NCBI GenBank assembly: GCA_964511645.1
Contig: CAZEGV010000005.1
Location: 1,157 to 65,156 of the forward strand
Reading direction: 5' to 3'
DNA length: 64,000 nt
Source: an uncultured Cytophagales bacterium
GTDB taxonomy: Bacteria > Bacteroidota > Bacteroidia > Cytophagales > JAAEPT01
Part shown: one piece after another, positions 4,563 through 59,205 of the stretch
How positions within the stretch are numbered: the first letter of the stretch is position 1
Layout of the letters: every line of letters begins with the position of its first letter
Position numbers and translations under genes: made by a program
The notes under the pieces: model-generated
What the model was told of the DNA's origin: nothing
Seen by the model: the letters and a program-made list of their open reading frames with translations, nothing else
Databases searched by the model: none

Positions 4563-5027
4563 ATGTATCAACTAGACAAAATTGACAATCAATTACTCAA
4601 TCTTTTACAAAACAACTCTAACACGACTACAAAAAATCTAGCTCAAAGAGTACACCTTTCTATTACACCTGTTTTTGAACGTATCAAACGATTAGAAAAA
4701 TTAGGGTATATTCAAAAATATGTAGCAATATTAGACGCAGACAAGCTTGATAAGGCTTTAGTTGTTTTTTGTAATATAACATTAAAAGAACATACCAAAG
4801 AAATTGGAAATCAGTTTGTGAAAGACATCAAATCTCTAAGCGAAGTTACTGAATGCTATAATATTTCTGGGGATTATGATTTTTTGTTAAAAGTACTCGT
4901 CAAAGACATGAAAGAGTATCAAAATTTTGTTATCAACCACCTTGGTGAGATTGACAATATAGGAAGTGCCCATAGCACCTTTGTAATGGGAGAAATAAAG
5001 CATTCCTACGCTGTGCCAATTACTTAA
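4563..5027 (+). CDS. Lrp/AsnC family transcriptional regulator
   Basis: 154 aa. It has an N-terminal HTH (LDKIDNQLLNLLQNNSNTTTKNLAQRVHLSITPVFERIKRLEKLGYIQ) followed by an AsnC/RAM ligand domain (ECYNISGDYDFLLKV). Confidence 0.9.
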   Translation: MYQLDKIDNQLLNLLQNNSNTTTKNLAQRVHLSITPVFERIKRLEKLGYIQKYVAILDADKLDKALVVFCNITLKEHTKEIGNQFVKDIKSLSEVTECYNISGDYDFLLKVLVKDMKEYQNFVINHLGEIDNIGSAHSTFVMGEIKHSYAVPIT

Positions 5028-5593: not shown

Positions 5594-6020
5594 ACGATCG
5601 CATTACTATTTGATACACTTCTTCAAAACCTGACTTGCCACCATAATATGGATCAGGAACATCTTTAAACAAATCATCTTCATCATAAGCCCTCATCAAT
5701 ACTAATTTTGCCCTATTGTCTTCATTTTTCATTTGATCTAGCTCAACATAGTTCTTTTTATCCATTGCTATAATATAATCAAATTTCTCAAAATCTTCTA
5801 CCTCCACTTGTCTTGCCCTAGACTTAAGGTTAATTCCATAACTCATTGCCATTTTTCGCATCCTGCCATCTGCCCGTTGCCCAACATGATAAGCTGATGT
5901 CCCCGCCGAATCTACGGCAATATCTTTCCTCTCTTTATCGTCAAGGATTTTAAGCAAAGCCCCCTCACCCATTGGTGATCGACAAATATTCCCTAAACAC
6001 ACAAATAATACTTTTTTCAT
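5562..6020 (-). CDS. Low-molecular-weight protein-tyrosine phosphatase
   Basis: 152 aa with the active-site P-loop VLFVCLGNICRSP (CX5R-S) at the N-terminus and a DP motif (VPDPYYG) near the C-terminus. Confidence 0.9.
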   Translation of the reverse strand: MKKVLFVCLGNICRSPMGEGALLKILDDKERKDIAVDSAGTSAYHVGQRADGRMRKMAMSYGINLKSRARQVEVEDFEKFDYIIAMDKKNYVELDQMKNEDNRAKLVLMRAYDEDDLFKDVPDPYYGGKSGFEEVYQIVMRSCEKFYNDELV

Positions 6021-6619
6021 CGATGATATTTTTTTTCTCCTGCAGGGATAGCTATTCCTAACACATTCTCTCTAGGCGGAATAGGACAAATATACTCATC
6101 ATTATACGCACAATAAGGATTAGTAGCCATATTAAAATCTAACAAATATTTTTTCTCTTGAAGAACCCTTGGTTTTACGTGCAAATACCTTCCTGTATCA
6201 TAAGTAGATTTTCCGTTAGTTTCATCCCCAAAAGGCAATAATAAATCACTGGGGTTTTCTTCATTCTGATACAGAAACAAAACACAAGCTTTTTTATGTA
6301 AGACAAACTCTAAGCGAGCCACTTTTTTATACATTTTAGGAGACTTTCCACTTGTCTGCTGAATTTGTACGTAATCATCCCCATCTAGCAACACCACCTT
6401 TATTTCCACCCTATATTTTTCATCTACCTCATAAAAATAAAGTTGTTGAGGAGGATTTTTAGCATCAAAAGGAGAATCAAAGTTACGTTGCATAAAAGCC
6501 AACAATTCCTCTCTTTCTTGACTTACAGTATCTATATAATTACTTGACGATGAAAACACACTTATCATAACCATCCCTAAAACTATCGCCAAAACACCTA
6601 CCACAGCCACTTTCTTCAT
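6017..6619 (-). CDS. DUF1684 domain protein
   Basis: 200 aa with an N-terminal TM or signal. The C-terminal block GKSTYDTGRYLHV ... DFNMATNPYCAYNDEYICPIPPRENVL matches the recalled DUF1684 signature. Confidence 0.65.
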   Translation of the reverse strand: MKKVAVVGVLAIVLGMVMISVFSSSSNYIDTVSQEREELLAFMQRNFDSPFDAKNPPQQLYFYEVDEKYRVEIKVVLLDGDDYVQIQQTSGKSPKMYKKVARLEFVLHKKACVLFLYQNEENPSDLLLPFGDETNGKSTYDTGRYLHVKPRVLQEKKYLLDFNMATNPYCAYNDEYICPIPPRENVLGIAIPAGEKKYHR

Positions 6620-7299
6620 AACTCTCCCTTATCTGCGAAGCTATAATACGCCTCATTACAAAATATAACATGATCCAACACAGGAATCTCCAACAGCTTC
6701 CCTGCCTCTACCAATTTCTTCGTTATCCGCCTATCTGCCTCACTTGGTTTCAATTGTCCAGAAGGATGATTGTGAACCAATATAATTGCCGAAGCTCTTT
6801 GTTCTAATGCTAATTTAAAAATTACTTTAGAATCAACACTTGTCCCCGATACACCACCCTTAGAAATCTGCATTGTTTTCATTACTTTATTAGCCCTAGA
6901 CAATGCCAAAACCCAAAACTCCTCATGATTCAAGTCCAAAAGATAAGGTCGAAGTACCTCATAAACATCCTTCGAGGAAGTGATCTTAATCTCTTCTACC
7001 TTCGATCCCTTCCGCCTTTTACCCAATTCTAAAGCACTTACAATACTAATTGCTTTTGCCTCACCAATCCCTTTAAATCTCATCAAATCTGGCACAGAAA
7101 GCCGAGCAAAAACATCCAATCGATGACCACAAGACCCCAGCATATCCTGAGCCAACTCCACCGCATTTTGCTCACGATTACCACTGCCAATCAATATCGC
7201 TATCAACTCACTATCGCTCAAAGCCTTCACACCTTTTAGCATTAATTTTTCTCGTGGTCTATCGTCTTCCGAAAGATCTAAAATCTTCTTTTCACTCAT
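6616..7299 (-). CDS. radC: RadC-family JAB-domain protein (UPF0758)
   Basis: 227 aa with an HhH region (LMRFKGIGEAKAISI) and the JAMM-like motif ILVHNHPSGQLKPSEAD. Confidence 0.9.
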   Translation of the reverse strand: MSEKKILDLSEDDRPREKLMLKGVKALSDSELIAILIGSGNREQNAVELAQDMLGSCGHRLDVFARLSVPDLMRFKGIGEAKAISIVSALELGKRRKGSKVEEIKITSSKDVYEVLRPYLLDLNHEEFWVLALSRANKVMKTMQISKGGVSGTSVDSKVIFKLALEQRASAIILVHNHPSGQLKPSEADRRITKKLVEAGKLLEIPVLDHVIFCNEAYYSFADKGEL

Positions 7300-7384: not shown

Positions 7385-7476
7385 GGAGCTTCCTCCTCGT
7401 ACCTCGGAGTCGGGCTATCCGTTCCCAATCTTCCCGATAAAAAATCGGGAAGGATTTCCACTTCTATCCCTAAGCC
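7385..7476 (-). repeat. Structured intergenic element, copy A (minus orientation)
   Basis: The reverse complement reads GGCTTAGGGATAGAAGTGGAAATCC-TTCCCGATTTTTTATCGGGAA-GATTGGGAACGGATAGCCCGAC-...AAGCTCC. It aligns box for box with the copies at 19282, 29456, 45508 and 59091. Confidence 0.8.
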
Positions 7477-7649
7477 AAAACCAGTAACCCCAAACAAAAC
7501 ACAATAAATTTTTAATTACTCAGTATAAAAAATTAAAAATCATTAAAAAAACAACAAAAAACAAAATAAAATTTTGCTCTCATAAGAGTATTATTTATTG
7601 CAGACTCAAATAATAATGATTACTTTTACCAGCTAAAATAAACCTAGAA

Positions 7650-26954: not shown

Positions 26955-28262
26955 GTGGTACTTATAAGAGTAAAAGAAAATATTGAAAAATTTTCATTAC
27001 AGCCTCAAGACAAAGTTCTTTTGGCAATAAGTGGTGGTGTAGATTCCATGGTATTGGTTGATGTCTTTCGGCGGTTAAACCTAAATATTGGTATCGCTCA
27101 CTGTAATTTTTCTCTGCGAGGAGAAGAATCTGACAAAGATGAAGAGCTTGTTATCGCTTACGCTAAAAGGCACAATACACCTATTCATCACATTAGGTTT
27201 GACACAAAAAAAGAAGCGAATAGATTAAAACTTTCCACCCAACTTACAGCCCGAAAACTACGATACAATTGGTTTTCTGAAATAAAAGAAAAACACAATT
27301 ACACCTATCTTGCTACTGCACATCACCTAGACGATCAATTAGAGACCTTTATCTTCAACCTATCTAGAGGGACAGGCATTAGTGGTTTACGAGCGATGCT
27401 TCCTCTCAACAATGGACTTATCAGACCTTTACTTAATGTCTCTAAAGATGAGGTTTACGCTTACGCTAAAAAAGAAAGTATCAACTGGAGGGAGGACAAA
27501 TCTAACACAAAGGATAAATACAGTAGAAATTATATCCGACATCAAATTACACCCAAACTAAAAGAGCTCAATCCAAACTTACTCAACACTTTTAACACTA
27601 CTATAAGTAGGCTTCTTGCTACCGAAAACATTTACAAAAAAGCAATTCAAAAAGACATAAGCAAACTATTTGATGGCAATCAAATCAGTATTTTAGAGTT
27701 GGGAAAACATATTGAGCCTTTACAGTTATTGTATGAAATTTTAAAATTATACCACTTTAGTTATGCTGATTGTCAAGCCATTTACAGTAAACTAAGCGAG
27801 CCTAAAGGACAGTTGTTTTATAGTAAAAGTCACCAAGTCAATATAGACAGGACACACCTATACCTCAGCAAGAAAACTATTAAACAAGATTGGGAAATTC
27901 CCCTTAATTTATCAGAAGAGAAAACAAATCTTCCAAATGGGAAGATGATTCATGTCACAAAGATAGATAGACCCAATTCATTCAAAACAGAAAAAAACAC
28001 ATTATACCTAAGCTTAGAAAACACAAACATAAACGTACGAATATGGAAAGAAGGTGATAAAATAAAACCTTTTGGTATGCACGGACAACAAAAAAAAGTA
28101 AGCGATATTCTTATTGATGCAAAAGTGCCTCAAACGTATAAAAAAGATGTACTCGTCTTATTAAGCAACTGCGAGATTATTTGGGTAGTAGGGCATTGTA
28201 GTAGTGAAAGTGTCAGAATTACTGACAGGAAAATTAGTGTTAATTGTATAAAACTGGTCTAG
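26955..28262 (+). CDS. tilS: tRNA(Ile)-lysidine synthetase
   Basis: 435 aa with a GTG start, the PP-loop LLAISGGVDSMVL, HHLDDQLET and a C-terminal TilS domain ...IIWVVGHCSSESVRITD.... Confidence 0.92.
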   Translation: MVLIRVKENIEKFSLQPQDKVLLAISGGVDSMVLVDVFRRLNLNIGIAHCNFSLRGEESDKDEELVIAYAKRHNTPIHHIRFDTKKEANRLKLSTQLTARKLRYNWFSEIKEKHNYTYLATAHHLDDQLETFIFNLSRGTGISGLRAMLPLNNGLIRPLLNVSKDEVYAYAKKESINWREDKSNTKDKYSRNYIRHQITPKLKELNPNLLNTFNTTISRLLATENIYKKAIQKDISKLFDGNQISILELGKHIEPLQLLYEILKLYHFSYADCQAIYSKLSEPKGQLFYSKSHQVNIDRTHLYLSKKTIKQDWEIPLNLSEEKTNLPNGKMIHVTKIDRPNSFKTEKNTLYLSLENTNINVRIWKEGDKIKPFGMHGQQKKVSDILIDAKVPQTYKKDVLVLLSNCEIIWVVGHCSSESVRITDRKISVNCIKLV

Positions 28263-28405
28263 CTTTTACTACGCTCTATTTGTCTTTTTCATTTTTTAGA
28301 CGTATATTTCAAATACTCAAAAAACACAACGATAAAACGTTTGTATGAGCTGTCCCTACTATGGGGAAATAGTTGTATTTTTAAGCTACAGTGGAATAAC
28401 TTATA

Positions 28406-29182
28406 ATGAACGATGAGTATAAAAAAATAATTAAAAATAAGATAATTACCTTTGGGGTCAACTTGGAACAAGAAACATCCATGAAGAAGAAATTGAAAAA
28501 GAAATCAAGACATGTCCCTAAAAAAGTAAGCCAAGCTGTTAAAAAGAGACACCACTTCGAATGTGCATGGTGTGGAATTGGGTTTACTGAAAGGCATCAT
28601 ATTGAAGAATTCTCGCAAGGAGGAGAGCATACAGAGGGAAACTTAATCTTATTATGTCCAATATGTCATAAAAAAGTACATCAAGGTAAAATATCGACAA
28701 GTGAATTGATTACAAGAAAATCTACTCATTTTAAATGCGATCGAATTTCTTCAAATTTCCAATCAACTATGGATAAACTGAAATTCAAGATTGGTGGCAC
28801 CTATTATTTTGACTCAGAGAATTTTTTAACTTACAAGCACGAAAAAGTGTTACATTTCGAAATTCGTGATAACCGATTATTGATTAATCTCAAGTTCTTT
28901 AATAAAAAAGGGGATTTGATTTTTTGGATGTCTGAAAATTATTTCTGGGTTAGTAGTGTCTTTAGTATTAAATCAAAACTGAATATTATTGAAATTAACC
29001 ATAATAAGGAAGAGCTTATTTTTAAGATGGAGAAAATAGATGACTATTTGAAAATTACATTGAAAACCTTTTTAGGTGGTGAGATTTTTGATTTCAATGA
29101 AAATTCGACAAACCTTCTTGGAAATAGATTTCATTTCGAAGGTCATTCTGTAACCTCTAAAGACATCTTTAACATAGGATAG
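28406..29182 (+). CDS. HNH endonuclease-domain protein with an uncharacterised C-terminal domain
   Basis: The HNH core is CAWCGIGFTERHHIEEFSQGGEHTEGNLILLCPICHKKVH (CxxC...HH...N...CxxCH), preceded by a Lys-rich stretch. The C-terminal roughly 150 aa is beta-rich with no recognised motif. An alternative start is ATG 28481 (MKKKLKKK). Confidence 0.8.
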   Translation: MNDEYKKIIKNKIITFGVNLEQETSMKKKLKKKSRHVPKKVSQAVKKRHHFECAWCGIGFTERHHIEEFSQGGEHTEGNLILLCPICHKKVHQGKISTSELITRKSTHFKCDRISSNFQSTMDKLKFKIGGTYYFDSENFLTYKHEKVLHFEIRDNRLLINLKFFNKKGDLIFWMSENYFWVSSVFSIKSKLNIIEINHNKEELIFKMEKIDDYLKITLKTFLGGEIFDFNENSTNLLGNRFHFEGHSVTSKDIFNIG

Positions 29183-29241
29183 CTGAGAATACGTAGAATT
29201 AACAGTAATAAAGAAAACCTTTTAACAACAAGATCGCTAAG

Positions 29242-29293
29242 AAAACTTAGTACTCCCATAATTGCTCTTGCAATTATGGGAGTACTAAGTTTT
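29242..29293. other. Perfect 24-bp inverted repeat hairpin (4-nt loop)
   Basis: AAAACTTAGTACTCCCATAATTGC (29242-29265), loop TCTT, then GCAATTATGGGAGTACTAAGTTTT (29270-29293). The arms are exact reverse complements, and the A4/T4 ends make it terminator-like in both directions. Confidence 0.85.
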
Positions 29294-29299
29294 AATAAT

Positions 29300-29446
29300 A
29301 TGGATAACGATTCATTACTCAATTTCAAAGACGATGTACTAGTTTTATTAGCCGACAACGAAATTACTTGGGTAGTAGGGTATTGTAGTAGTGAAAATAC
29401 TTGCATCACCAATGAGGATCCAACGATTTTCAAATTAGCTTTTTAA
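29300..29446 (+). pseudogene. Orphan diverged copy of the tilS 3' end (C-terminal about 48 codons only)
   Basis: It translates to MDNDSLLNFKDDVLVLLADNEITWVVGYCSSENTCITNEDPTIFKLAF*. The intact TilS C-terminus is ...KKDVLVLLSNCEIIWVVGHCSSESVRITDRKISVNCIKLV*. By manual count, nt 29333-29396 match 28146-28209 at 54 of 64 positions. Confidence 0.75.
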
Positions 29447-29455
29447 GTTTTTTTT

Positions 29456-29604
29456 GCGTGAGGGGTAGTAGTGGAAATCCTTTATTGTTATTATGATTTT
29501 GTCATATAGGGCTTGTCGAAGCATAAAAATCATAATAACAATAAAGATTGGGAACGTATAACCCGACCGCATGAGCCTTCCTTTTGGCGAATGTGGGCAA
29601 GCCC
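29456..29604 (+). repeat. Structured intergenic element, copy D (expanded middle hairpin)
   Basis: The sequence is GCGTGA-GGGGTAGTAGTGGAAATCC-[20-bp perfect stem 29481-29500/29526-29545]-GATTGGGAACGTATAACCCGAC-[hairpin]-CAAGCCC. Confidence 0.8.
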
Positions 29605-29630: not shown

Positions 29631-30686
29631 TCAGGTATATTGACTTTCGTAGTATGATTGATACTCCCCCGACACTACGTCTTCTAACCACTTCTCATTG
29701 TCCAAGTACCAAGCTACAGTCTGGTGTAACCCTTCTTCAAACTGAAGGCTTGGCATCCATCCCAAATCATCCTTTACCTTGCTTGCATCTATTGCGTAAC
29801 GCATATCATGTCCTGCTCTATCCGTTACAAATGTAATGAGTTGTTCAGAAGTACCCGCAATTCTCCCTAATTTTTCGTCCATCACCTTACAAAGTAATTT
29901 TATCAAATCAAGGTTTGTCCATTCATTCCACCCACCTATATTATACGTTTCTCCGTCTTCTCCCTGATGAAAGATAGTGTCTATCGCACGGGCATGATCT
30001 ACAACATAAAGCCAATCTCTGATGTTATCCCCTTTTCCATATATCGGTAATGGTTTGTTATTTTTTATATTATTGATGCATAGTGGTATCAATTTTTCAG
30101 GAAACTGATTAGGTCCGTAGTTATTAGAGCAGTTAGAAATAACCGTCCGTAGGCCATAAGTATTGTTATAAGCCCTTACAAAATGGTCAGAACTTGCTTT
30201 GGATGCCGAATACGGGGATTGTGGATCATAAGCTGTGGTTTCCAAAAAAAAACCTGTATCACCCAAAGATCCGTAAACTTCATCTGTAGAAACATGGTAA
30301 AACAAATGCTTGTCGCTAGATAAATCCCATAATTCTTTAGCCACGTTTAGCAGTATCGCTGTTCCTATAATATTAGTCTGGATAAATGCTAATGGATTTT
30401 CGATAGATCTATCTACGTGAGACTCTGCTGCAAGATGAATTACATAATCAATTTCATACTTTTCAAATGTTTCTTTTACTTTTGATTCATCACAAATATC
30501 CCCTTTTACAAAGACATAATTATTAGTAGTCTCTACCTCTGTTAAATTTTTAAGATTTCCTGCATAAGTAAGGGAGTCAAAATTAACAATTCTATACGTT
30601 GGATATTGCTCTACAAACAATTTCACAACATGAGAACCAATAAATCCAGCTCCTCCTGTAACTAATATATTTTTTTTAAACTTCAC
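29631..30686 (-). CDS. rfbB: dTDP-glucose 4,6-dehydratase
   Basis: 351 aa extended SDR with TGGAGFIGSH, the catalytic YSASKASSD and the typical RfbB C-terminus. Confidence 0.92.
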   Translation of the reverse strand: MKFKKNILVTGGAGFIGSHVVKLFVEQYPTYRIVNFDSLTYAGNLKNLTEVETTNNYVFVKGDICDESKVKETFEKYEIDYVIHLAAESHVDRSIENPLAFIQTNIIGTAILLNVAKELWDLSSDKHLFYHVSTDEVYGSLGDTGFFLETTAYDPQSPYSASKASSDHFVRAYNNTYGLRTVISNCSNNYGPNQFPEKLIPLCINNIKNNKPLPIYGKGDNIRDWLYVVDHARAIDTIFHQGEDGETYNIGGWNEWTNLDLIKLLCKVMDEKLGRIAGTSEQLITFVTDRAGHDMRYAIDASKVKDDLGWMPSLQFEEGLHQTVAWYLDNEKWLEDVVSGEYQSYYESQYT

Positions 30687-33167: not shown

Positions 33168-33191
33168 CAACCCTTTAAAAATGGAAATAAG

Positions 33192-33386
33192 ATGATTGTA
33201 GTAAACGTAAAAGACAACGAGTCAATAGAAAGAGCATTAAAGAGATTCAAAAAGAAATTTGAAAAAACTGGTGCACTTAGAGAGCTTAGAAGAAGAACTG
33301 CTTATAAAAAGAAATCTGTTACAGATAGAGAGCAACTGATTAAAGCAAGATATAAAGAAGGATACAGAAACGGAACTAGAATTTAA
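33192..33386 (+). CDS. rpsU: 30S ribosomal protein S21
   Basis: MIVVNVKDNESIERALKRFKKKFEKTGALRELRRRTAYKKKS... is a canonical S21 sequence. ATG 33192 is preferred over the TTG at 33165 given in the ORF track. Confidence 0.9.
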   Translation: MIVVNVKDNESIERALKRFKKKFEKTGALRELRRRTAYKKKSVTDREQLIKARYKEGYRNGTRI

Positions 33387-33449
33387 ATAGTTTTTCTCCT
33401 TATTTTTCCATATATTTAGTAGGTAACCTAAGAAGTATCTACTAAGTAT

Positions 33450-34355
33450 ATGATTAATAGATTTATATCTTTTTTAACTTTTGAAAAGCGATATAGTCCG
33501 CATACTATAGAAGCATATCGAAGAGATATAGCTCAGTTGAAGCAGTACAATAAAGATTTTTTTCAATTAGATGATTTAGCATCTGCTAGTCATAACGAAA
33601 TTCGTGCGTGGGTAATTCAAATGATGGACAAAAACCTAGAAAGCTCTTCCATTAATCGCAAGATGTCTTCTGTCAAGACATATTATAATTTTTTATTGAG
33701 AGAGGAGATCATAACTAAAGACCCTACTTCCAAGATTAAAAAAATAAAATCGAAGAAAAAAATCCCACAATTTATTCCAGAAAACTCTTTACAGAAAAAA
33801 CTACAGGAATACACTGGTACTTTAAATAAAGAAAAGCACTCCTTAGACTCGTTTCATGCTTGTAGAAATCTATTTTGCATAGAATTACTTTATAATACAG
33901 GCATACGACTATCAGAAGCCGTAAAGCTAAGCCATTCAAACATTTCCATTCCGAAAAGTCAAATAAAAGTTCTCGGAAAAGGCAATAAAGAACGTATTAT
34001 TCCGCTTAGTAATAGTATGGCAAACACTTTAACCATTTATCTTTTAAAAAAAGAAAACGAATTTAAAGAAAAAAACCCTACACTCATCGTAACCGACAAA
34101 GGAAAAAAAACGTATGCTATGCATATACAATCAATTGTAAAAGACTTCCTCCATCAAGAGAAGAGCGTAAAACAAAAAAGTCCACATACTTTGCGACACA
34201 GTTTTGCTACTCATCTTTTAAACAACGGAGCAGACCTCAATGCAATTAAAGAGTTATTAGGGCACGCAAGCTTGGCAGCAACCCAGATTTACACCCATAA
34301 CTCTATTGAAAAACTAAAGAATGCTTTTGATCAAGCACATCCAAAGGCAAAATAG
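33450..34355 (+). CDS. Tyrosine recombinase, XerC/XerD family
   Basis: 301 aa with an N-terminal SAM-like core-binding domain (TIEAYRRDIAQL) and catalytic residues in TGIRLSEA ... HTLRHSFATHLL ... ATQIYTH. The rpsU-xer-hpf position is conserved in Bacteroidota. Confidence 0.85.
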   Translation: MINRFISFLTFEKRYSPHTIEAYRRDIAQLKQYNKDFFQLDDLASASHNEIRAWVIQMMDKNLESSSINRKMSSVKTYYNFLLREEIITKDPTSKIKKIKSKKKIPQFIPENSLQKKLQEYTGTLNKEKHSLDSFHACRNLFCIELLYNTGIRLSEAVKLSHSNISIPKSQIKVLGKGNKERIIPLSNSMANTLTIYLLKKENEFKEKNPTLIVTDKGKKTYAMHIQSIVKDFLHQEKSVKQKSPHTLRHSFATHLLNNGADLNAIKELLGHASLAATQIYTHNSIEKLKNAFDQAHPKAK

Positions 34356-34387
34356 CACAATGTTTCACCCATAAAAAAAGATAAACT

Positions 34388-34675
34388 ATGAAATTACAAA
34401 TCAGTTCTTTAAAATTTGATGCCGACGAAAAACTTCTTGACTACATCCAAAAAAAAACAGACAAACTAGAAACTTTTCATGATAAAATCATTGACGGGGA
34501 AGTTAGTCTCAAGCTTAATAAAAATGAAATGAGAGAAAACAAAACCGTTGATTTAAAAGTAAGAATCCCTGGTGCATCATTATTTGCCAGCGAGCAAAAA
34601 GCATCTTTTGAAGCAGCAACAGAAGAAGCTGTAGAATCTATCAGAAGACAATTAAGAAAACAAAAAGGGAAATAA
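34388..34675 (+). CDS. hpf: Ribosome hibernation promoting factor / RaiA family (short form)
   Basis: 95 aa S30AE/sigma-54-modulation family pattern (MKLQISSLKFDADEKLLDYIQKK..KL ... ASFEAATEEAVESIRRQLRK). Confidence 0.8.
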   Translation: MKLQISSLKFDADEKLLDYIQKKTDKLETFHDKIIDGEVSLKLNKNEMRENKTVDLKVRIPGASLFASEQKASFEAATEEAVESIRRQLRKQKGK

Positions 34676-34695
34676 ACACAACGATTTTACAAACT

Positions 34696-59070: not shown

Positions 59071-59090
59071 TTATAGCGTAAGTTTTTTTT

Positions 59091-59205
59091 GCGTGAGGGA
59101 TAGTAACGGCATCCTTTTTTTGACTTAAAAACAATAATAAATAAAAAAAGATATAGCGCATAGCCCGACATCATTTCGCTTTTTCAGCGAGATGATGGCA
59201 CGCCC
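59091..59205 (+). repeat. Structured intergenic element, copy E
   Basis: The sequence is GCGTGA-GGGATAGTAACGGCATCC-[T7...A7 hairpin]-GATATAGCGCATAGCCCGAC-[12-bp hairpin 59169-59180/59186-59197 with one G-T]-GGCACGCCC. It abuts the speE-like stop codon (59206). Confidence 0.8.

Follow-up and report, generated by a model that had tools for sequence, protein, structure and literature searches.

A mobile HNH nuclease gene in the 3' end of tilS of an uncultured Cytophagales bacterium, between an intact tilS with a different tail and an orphan tilS end

The window analysed here is a stretch of 64,000 nucleotides (nt) from an uncultured Cytophagales bacterium (contig CAZEGV010000005.1, assembly GCA_964511645.1). 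In this stretch the gene tilS, which encodes the tRNA-Ile lysidine synthetase, is followed by a gene encoding an HNH nuclease and then by an orphan copy of the tilS 3' end (Table 1). An earlier note, made by reading the letters, had described tilS as intact and ending at 28262, which is borne out by the open reading frame (ORF) 26955-28262 with its TilS domains; the N-terminal and the C-terminal domains of the product were both matched in NCBIfam as well. The robust conclusion of our analysis is that the 3' end of tilS contains a foreign segment of ~1.19 kb, that the tail of the gene was replaced and that another genuine tail was displaced downstream. The arrangement of tilS, HNH gene and orphan was the same in three assemblies (ENA, JGI and Logan), which may come from one common sample.

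Table 1. Features at the tilS locus (positions in the window)
Feature	Position	Strand	Remarks
tilS (tRNA-Ile lysidine synthetase), intact, 435 amino acids (aa)	26955..28262	+	ORF; Pfam ATP_bind_3 (PP-loop domain) 5e-52, TilS_C 2e-7
Direct-repeat copy 1, 70 nt, inside tilS (codons K396-E418)	28140..28209	+	58/70 identical to copy 2
29-nt core copy 1, proposed crossover region	28181..28209	+	28/29 identical to copy 2
Substitute tilS tail, 17 codons (SVRITDRKISVNCIKLV, then stop)	28210..28262	+	Not alignable with the orphan tail as DNA (p = 0.78)
Promoter-like site of the HNH gene, TTTG-N20-TATATTTC	28279..28310	+	By reading; a match to a sigma-70-type consensus (28280-28308) overlaps it
HNH nuclease gene, 233 aa	28481..29182	+	Pfam HNH 8.7e-11; start from homologue starts; longest ORF begins at 28406
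Perfect 24-bp hairpin, 4-nt loop, flanked by A4 and T4	29242..29293	.	Arms 29242-29265 and 29270-29293; unique in the window
Direct-repeat copy 2, tilS-like block of the orphan	29327..29396	+	58/70 (83%) identical to copy 1
29-nt core copy 2	29368..29396	+	28/29 identical to copy 1
Orphan tail, 16 codons, own stop codon (NTCITNEDPTIFKLAF, then stop)	29397..29446	+	ORF 29276-29446
Possible third, vestigial copy of the junction of core and native tail (GTAGTAGTGGAAATCCTT)	29465..29482	+	16/18 identical to 29385-29402
Second hairpin, between orphan and rfbB	29480..29546	.	Perfect 21-bp arms, 25-nt loop
rfbB-like gene (dTDP-glucose 4,6-dehydratase)	29631..30686	-	Pfam GDP_Man_Dehyd 2.5e-97, Epimerase 3e-68

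The duplication consists of a direct repeat whose two copies are spaced exactly 1187 bp apart, as the earlier note had counted, the second of them belonging to an orphan that has its own stop codon. Local alignment of the copies gave a score of 78 against 21.0±2.4 (maximum 31) in 300 shuffles, so that the similarity passes the pairwise test that the note had named as able to overturn it; blastn of one flank against the other gave E = 2.5e-16 and the translated match E = 1.3e-8. Chance similarity is ruled out by the shuffles and by these E-values. The count of 54 matching positions out of 64 between 28146-28209 and 29333-29396 was reproduced, together with the 29-nt core that holds a single mismatch, and this core occurs in only two copies in the window even when up to 3 mismatches are allowed.

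Both edges of the repeat are sharp, which makes it a discrete block of 70 nt and not, as had been suggested, a similarity that decays after the core: the tails that follow cannot be aligned as DNA (p = 0.78). On the other side, similarity is lacking in the 60 nt upstream of the two copies (p = 0.48), and the orphan is without the K-[VI]-P motif that invariably precedes the block in TilS homologues. The orphan had been placed at 29300-29446; its stop codon stands, and its tilS-like part starts only at about 29327.

Eleven of the 12 differences between the repeat copies are located within the first 41 nt, against a single one in the last 29, the core (binomial p ~0.015 under an even spread, by our own calculation). 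Counted over codon positions 1, 2 and 3, the differences number 5, 3 and 4, a nearly even distribution, as expected under neutral decay, which would suit an old duplication, within this lineage, of the 3' region of tilS, with a downstream copy that decayed as a pseudogene and an HNH gene that was inserted between the copies independently. We consider such a history very improbable, however, given the crowding of the differences into the left part of the repeat and the tails, which share no DNA similarity and yet keep an open frame of near-equal length with the I-T motif of the family; two independent events would moreover be required at one spot. In the core, all 7 degenerate codons use the same codon in both copies, the non-preferred GGG included, and in the left arm of the repeat 3 of 9 conserved codons differ synonymously. 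In the best-conserved block outside the core the two tilS lineages are just 73% identical.

The tails themselves, only weakly alike as proteins (p = 0.11), run for 16-17 codons to a stop and have the I-T motif at an equal distance downstream of WVVG, and that of the orphan aligns without gaps to the tail of the homologue P0084 (ITEQTNNILRIYF). Because their length to the stop and the placement of I-T fit the family, and because of the match to P0084, both look like genuine TilS ends from different lineages. This agrees with the earlier view that the 3' end of tilS is duplicated, the gene being intact with a different tail and the orphan being a genuine C-terminus. The tail that tilS now uses was probably borne by the cassette, and the orphan tail would then be the displaced native end of the gene. 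The DNA that follows the resident stop codon has no homology to the DNA that follows the orphan stop codon (score 24 against 17.9±2.6 in shuffles, maximum 30). About 80 nt downstream of the orphan junction there is a possible third copy of the junction between core and native tail, a match of a quality (16/18) reached in 1 of 300 shuffles (p ~0.003, post hoc), which may be what is left of a still older tilS end that was displaced, or of an older attachment site.

The interval between the repeat copies contains, in this order, 53 nt of tilS tail, 218 nt with a promoter-like site, the HNH gene, a hairpin and a linker of 33 nt, so that the HNH gene and the perfect 24-bp hairpin that had been noticed between the copies are indeed there. 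The promoter-like site was compared with the Bacteroidetes -33/-7 consensus and is the putative promoter of the HNH gene. The start of this gene is probably 28481 (Met26 of the longest ORF), since the homologues and the DNA homology begin at the second Met; DNA homology of the gene to other loci is limited to 28496-29182. The hairpin is terminator-like and could act as a bidirectional terminator. An integron gene cassette was ruled out by inspection: an attC site would be an imperfect palindrome that has extrahelical bases and ends in GTTRRRY, and here a perfect 24-bp stem is followed by GTTTTAA with no attC consensus.

The HNH gene is the only ORF of the cassette with a domain match, and no recombinase is encoded there. 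The earlier statement that no integrase is present is therefore right for the cassette and wrong for the neighbourhood, as a gene for a tyrosine recombinase of 301 aa (33450-34355) lies ~4 kb away, the sole recombinase within 10 kb of the cassette. This recombinase is XerC/XerD-like and its gene is placed between rpsU (S21) and hpf (window positions 33190-34680), a housekeeping setting that rules it out as a part of the cassette.

Neither a recombinase nor terminal repeats belong to the cassette, which counts in favour of a one-off scar. According to this explanation, a chromosomal stretch with tilS, the HNH gene and the terminator, coming from a donor related to the recipient, would have replaced the recipient tilS by homologous exchange upstream and by an illegitimate join on the right at codon 396, leaving the last 40 codons of the recipient in place, and the HNH gene would be a chance downstream neighbour of the donor tilS. 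The sharp left edge of the orphan, 33 nt past the terminator, fits an illegitimate join; the locus adjoins a polysaccharide gene cluster, a kind of region prone to exchange; and the intergenic slots of the nuclease family, described below, swap cargo between species without element machinery. Nevertheless, a homologous anchor needs long similar DNA, and the two lineages are 73% identical outside the core with tails that cannot be aligned. Neither the 28/29 core beside a dissimilar tail nor the possible third junction would be explained, and we regard such a scar as an unlikely origin of the locus.

The HNH protein belongs to a family of Bacteroidota proteins of ~230 aa, in which a zinc-HNH domain at the N-terminus is followed by a conserved C-terminal domain of ~150 aa with the motif LIFWMSxNRYW. 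A word-indexed search gave 78 matches and an exhaustive profile search gave 48 representatives at E ≤ 1e-30 and ~1000 at E ≤ 1e-10; proteins with this HNH-plus-beta-domain architecture form hundreds of 50%-identity clusters in Bacteroidota. All the invariant Cys, His and Asn columns of the family are kept in the protein of the window, for which an AlphaFold model with a pLDDT of 90 was obtained. The HNH domain resembles those of EcoKMcrA, ScoMcrA and IscB, with 6ghc (E = 3.7e-3) and 5zmm among the Foldseek matches and 6ghc_A (3.4e-8) found by profile search against PDB.

The C-terminal domain (28733-29179, residues ~85-233) has an all-beta fold modelled with a pLDDT of ~90 and is conserved in hundreds of Bacteroidota proteins; no significant match was found for it in PDB or in viral structure libraries, and it has no Pfam family. 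In PADLOC and NCBIfam the HNH motif alone was matched and no whole-protein family (best PADLOC value 2.1e-5), and PADLOC gave a weak mREase_IV match. PHROG 6544, to which no function is assigned, matched the protein at 1.4e-24. The family as a whole is uncharacterised to date. A plasmid or phage origin has no support, the tblastn searches of PLSDB and INPHARED being empty at 1e-10.

The closest homologues of the HNH protein are 79% (locus L013), 73% (L002) and 65% (L001) identical to it and sit in other organisms, Cryomorpha ignava among them. The HNH proteins are 65-79% identical between organisms whose TilS proteins reach 44% identity at most, and the HNH gene is therefore horizontally mobile, as the earlier note had held. 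Its relatives are found in varied surroundings. The gene of L001 is flanked by a type I HsdR gene and McrBC/PLD genes, that of L002 adjoins an HTH_17 gene and a large serine recombinase, and that of L013 adjoins a gene matching a defence-associated REase model. Other members adjoin a WYL regulator (L016) or Rhs-like genes (L015, identified by eye), and a Sphingobacterium-type member (L065, 900-8450) is placed on the opposite strand between terminase-like and capsid/protease-like prophage genes (by eye), a position typical of free-standing phage nuclease genes. Five more (L003, L084, L087, L088 and L096) are lone genes among housekeeping genes, mostly between convergent genes. Members of this family are found as single genes in defence islands, in a prophage, in a serine-recombinase island and in intergenic slots.

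The earlier note had asked whether homologues also sit beside duplicated gene 3' ends. In a screen of 13 loci, four have flanking repeats (the window, L016, L088 and L003) and nine do not, and a duplicated gene 3' end was found in the window alone. The direct repeat of L016 has ~55 nt at 76% identity (E = 6e-7; 369-427 and 1456-1508). In L088 the direct repeat has 43 nt at 77% (E = 2e-4; 4941-4983 and 6561-6603), and each copy precedes a start codon by ~20 nt, which would fit the duplication of a promoter or leader. In L003, a metagenomic population of 17 contigs with the HNH gene between dNK and lysA, inverted copies (82-88%) of one terminator hairpin at 5926-5992 and 6776-6842, non-palindromic flanks included, exactly bracket the HNH gene. 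A scan of metagenomes with the HNH alignment yielded no more than 3-4 full-length loci of the family, too few for firm statistics.

Two intergenic slots of Chryseobacterium allow genomes to be compared. In the first, between a patatin gene and a flavodoxin gene, one genome carries the HNH gene (L087, 4960-5800), a second has 95 nt of filler (L089, 4587-4738; its patatin is 96% identical to that of L087), and C. nakagawai (L093/L094; L093 4587-5368) has DUF2199 and an ORF of 75 aa. The boundaries of this slot are clean, with zero duplication and an unchanged patatin C-terminus. All three contents share the right boundary at the flavodoxin terminator, and the HNH and DUF2199 alleles share ~13 nt at the left junction. 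The L087 member, 38% identical to the HNH protein of the window, is the sole family member with a comparable empty site. In the second slot, between DoxD and an MFS transporter, L096 (4001-4690) has a full-length gene and L095 (3001-3489) an interrupted remnant of 162 aa, with an extra insert of ~1.3 kb upstream in L095. The two diverge at ~80% from the HNH start through the right flank, and the left flank aligns at 73%; because the HNH gene diverges in step with the right-hand flank, these copies appear to be vertically inherited and decaying.

These contexts bear on the possibility that the nuclease itself produced the locus by homing, as mORFs do in mitochondria. In this case the HNH protein would cut an HNH-less tilS near codon 396, at the left edge of the repeat, and the break would be repaired from a donor carrying a foreign tilS 3' end and the HNH gene, by homology on the left and end-joining on the right. 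The last 40 codons of the recipient would be left as the orphan, so that 28140-28262 would be all foreign and 29327-29446 all native, and the predicted empty allele would read …CCTCAAACGTAT joined to AAAGACGATGTACTAG. The layout is that of the mORFs of Allomyces and Glomus mitochondria (PMC3630166), the sole gene of the cassette is an intact nuclease with all the catalytic residues of the family, and the similarity starts sharply at 28140/29327, as for a point of breakage or joining. The family also acts like a selfish single gene, with ORF-precise edges and presence or absence between near-identical genomes, with the L065 copy on the opposite strand in a prophage structural module and the L095 copy an interrupted pseudogene, and flanking repeats of 43-67 nt occur at L016, L088 and L003.

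The idea that the HNH protein drives the insertion by homing on tilS did not hold up well, however. The homologues of 79%, 73% and 65% identity, which would be expected to share the target, are not near tilS but in defence and mobile islands, and no tilS-like sequence was found in the other family loci, these three included, by tblastn with TilS and the orphan. The first Chryseobacterium slot shows alternative cargo instead of a duplication, and the divergence (at ~80%) in step with the right flank across the two genomes of the second slot points to vertical inheritance. The compact all-beta C-terminal domain gave no match to the DNA-binding modules of known HNH homing enzymes, and the HNH domain is of the McrA/IscB type. 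Repair on the left side would need homology, yet the tilS lineages are 73% identical in their best-conserved block. Homing of this kind is accordingly something we find doubtful; the corresponding wider proposal, a bacterial chromosomal counterpart of mORFs in which the HNH gene spreads by cutting tilS, brings its own C-terminus, so that the essential gene would outlive every invasion, and leaves a trail of orphans including 29465-29482, seems to us improbable too.

The explanation that we favour, tentatively and short of an even chance, is that the segment is a horizontally acquired cargo cassette without a recombinase, which integrated through a single crossover in the 29-nt core. The cassette would have existed as a circle composed, in order, of the 70-nt tilS-like block, the 17-codon tail with its stop, the promoter-like site, the HNH gene, the terminator hairpin, the 33-nt linker and the block again. 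One reciprocal crossover in the core would have joined the chromosomal tilS to the tail of the cassette, keeping the essential gene whole, and the same crossover would have fused the tilS-like arm of the cassette to the native last 16 codons, giving the downstream orphan. The exchange would have been catalysed by a recombinase acting in trans, a route known from cis-mobilisable derivatives of integrative elements and from SCC elements without ccr, or by host homologous recombination on the short identical core. The HNH protein would not be the integration enzyme but cargo, most probably a nuclease of the defence or selfish type. This model predicts an empty or deletion junction from 28209 to 29397, reading …TGTAGTAGTGAAA joined to ATACTTGCATC, and a circle junction from 29396 to 28210.

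An exchange in the core is suggested because identity peaks there and then falls to chance in the tails, and the cassette seems to carry a working substitute end because both tails fit the TilS family pattern. Repeated use of the site is hinted at by the possible third junction vestige. The HNH gene looks like cargo because its nearest relatives are cargo in defence and mobile islands unconnected with tilS and because the DNA homology is confined to its ORF; the alternative cargo of the Chryseobacterium slot and the McrA/IscB-like HNH domain support the same view.

Several points weigh against this explanation. Site-specific recombinases usually act on attachment sites that are short and identical, and not on 70 nt at 83%, and a RecA-type exchange on 29 nt is inefficient. 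The high identity of the core could result simply from codon bias combined with conservation of the WVVGxCSSE motif, and the contrast between core and left arm at synonymous sites is marginal (~0.06, by our own estimate). The role of cargo would also leave a minimal, nuclease-only cassette unexplained. Neither an empty site, nor an excised circle, nor an autonomous parent with the same core was found, and no TilS relative above 44% identity; an exact-match scan for the core in viral contigs gave 0 matches.

Among 5.8 billion proteins the best TilS homologue is 44% identical, with nothing between 44% and 100%, and a scan of genome contigs with TilS gave relatives of 35-40% only. Cluster look-ups of TilS, the HNH protein, the orphan ORF and RfbB led to one genome population, assembled three times, with the cassette always present. 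The serine recombinase of L002 stands beside a 73%-identical HNH gene, yet that locus is without tilS-like sequence. As an integration target, tilS was not encountered in the literature searched.

In the surroundings of the cassette, the rfbB-like gene is the right-hand neighbour, convergent with tilS, and opens a sugar-nucleotide gene cluster, and a polysaccharide gene cluster with rfbB, an epimerase and a UDP-glucose dehydrogenase stands at the edge of the locus. No other copy of the second hairpin, which lies between the orphan and rfbB, occurs in the window, and the hairpin lacks a T-run; it may represent either the original tilS/rfbB terminator or a piece of an older insert. The window also contains two copies of the Flavo-1 small RNA (Rfam RF01705), at 7404-7480 on the minus strand and 59086-59174 on the plus strand (61.5 and 49.9 bits), and these support a Bacteroidota/Flavobacteria-like origin of the lineage. 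No tRNA genes were found in the window and no RNA families other than these two, which are far from the locus; a tRNA target or a known RNA element as the insertion site was ruled out on this account.

Known systems offer close parallels to the favoured cassette. Cis-mobilisable elements (CIMEs) are reportedly derived from ICESt1/3, and pseudo-SCC elements that lack ccr are found at the 3' end of rlmH (orfX). The island SGI1 integrates at the 3' end of trmE, a tRNA-modification gene (PMC8409611, PMC6531882). With recombinase-less derivatives of integrative elements at gene 3' ends the locus shares the use of the last codons of a housekeeping RNA-modification gene, a target kept intact by an end that the element supplies, direct repeats containing target sequence, the lack of a recombinase of its own, a small accessory cargo and possibly a serial use of the site. 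It differs from them in having a 70-nt repeat of 83% identity and not a short identical core, in that no parent element or matching recombinase was found, and in its single nuclease cargo, its uncultured Bacteroidota host and its target tilS. Seen as an integrative element, it has target-containing direct repeats and a restored frame and lacks its own recombinase.

The earlier note had called the mobility homing-type or otherwise unexplained, but precedents exist, both in derivatives of elements without a recombinase and in the duplications made by fungal mitochondrial nucleases (PMC3630166). The latter, the mORFs, are known from atp6 of Allomyces macrogynus and from atp6, atp9, cox2 and nad3 of Glomus sp., with duplicated ends that are 64-81% identical and with mobility shown biochemically in Allomyces (PMC3630166). 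The likeness to our locus lies in the host gene with an in-frame foreign C-terminus, the endonuclease ORF, the native C-terminus ~1 kb downstream and the lack of a recombinase, and the divergence of the ends is comparable (64-81% there, 83% over the block here). The mORFs, however, encode LAGLIDADG or GIY-YIG enzymes in organelles, with cleavage shown in Allomyces, whereas here a putative HNH nuclease is encoded in a bacterial chromosome, and its close homologues are not tied to the same target gene. The window thus shows the intact endonuclease and the duplicated C-terminus downstream of it, and its homologues are found in other places. Because the locus has no recombinase of its own, as elements have, and because its relatives do not share a target, as those of mORFs do, it is not a member of either kind.

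A further comparison is with T4 mobE (PMC2790892) and nucleases of the I-HmuI type, which the family resembles in its lone intergenic genes with ORF-precise edges, its presence or absence between relatives and its one prophage member. Presence or absence at one site was seen for the 38%-identical member, between L087 and L089, the slot holding unrelated cargo in L093. Phage HNH homing differs in that it leaves no target duplication and in its enzymes, which have extended helical DNA-binding modules, in contrast to the compact all-beta domain found here. A relation to the type IV restriction enzymes of the McrA type is suggested by EcoKMcrA and ScoMcrA as best matches, by the weak mREase_IV match and by the location of some members in defence islands; the type of HNH domain agrees, but no curated defence model covers the whole protein, the order of domains is reversed (HNH is N-terminal) and no counterpart of the second domain was found among known modification readers. 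Displaced orphan C-terminal modules also make up the cdiA-CT and rhs orphan arrays that follow polymorphic toxin genes. As there, a new 3' end would recombine at a conserved block and the old end with its stub would be pushed downstream, but tilS encodes an essential tRNA-modification enzyme and has no immunity gene, so that the parallel concerns the mechanism alone.

The feature is real and tidy, with unusual details, and it is explicable by known processes. If the nuclease is cargo, the locus would be a clean, minimal case of a defence-type or selfish gene entering the end of an essential gene harmlessly, and tilS would join the short list of RNA-modification genes that serve as landing sites (trmE, rlmH and dusA). 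If, on the other hand, homing produced it, this would be the first bacterial chromosomal nuclease carrying a replacement gene end, hitherto documented in fungal mitochondria, and a compact HNH enzyme that recognises DNA with a new all-beta domain would have been identified.

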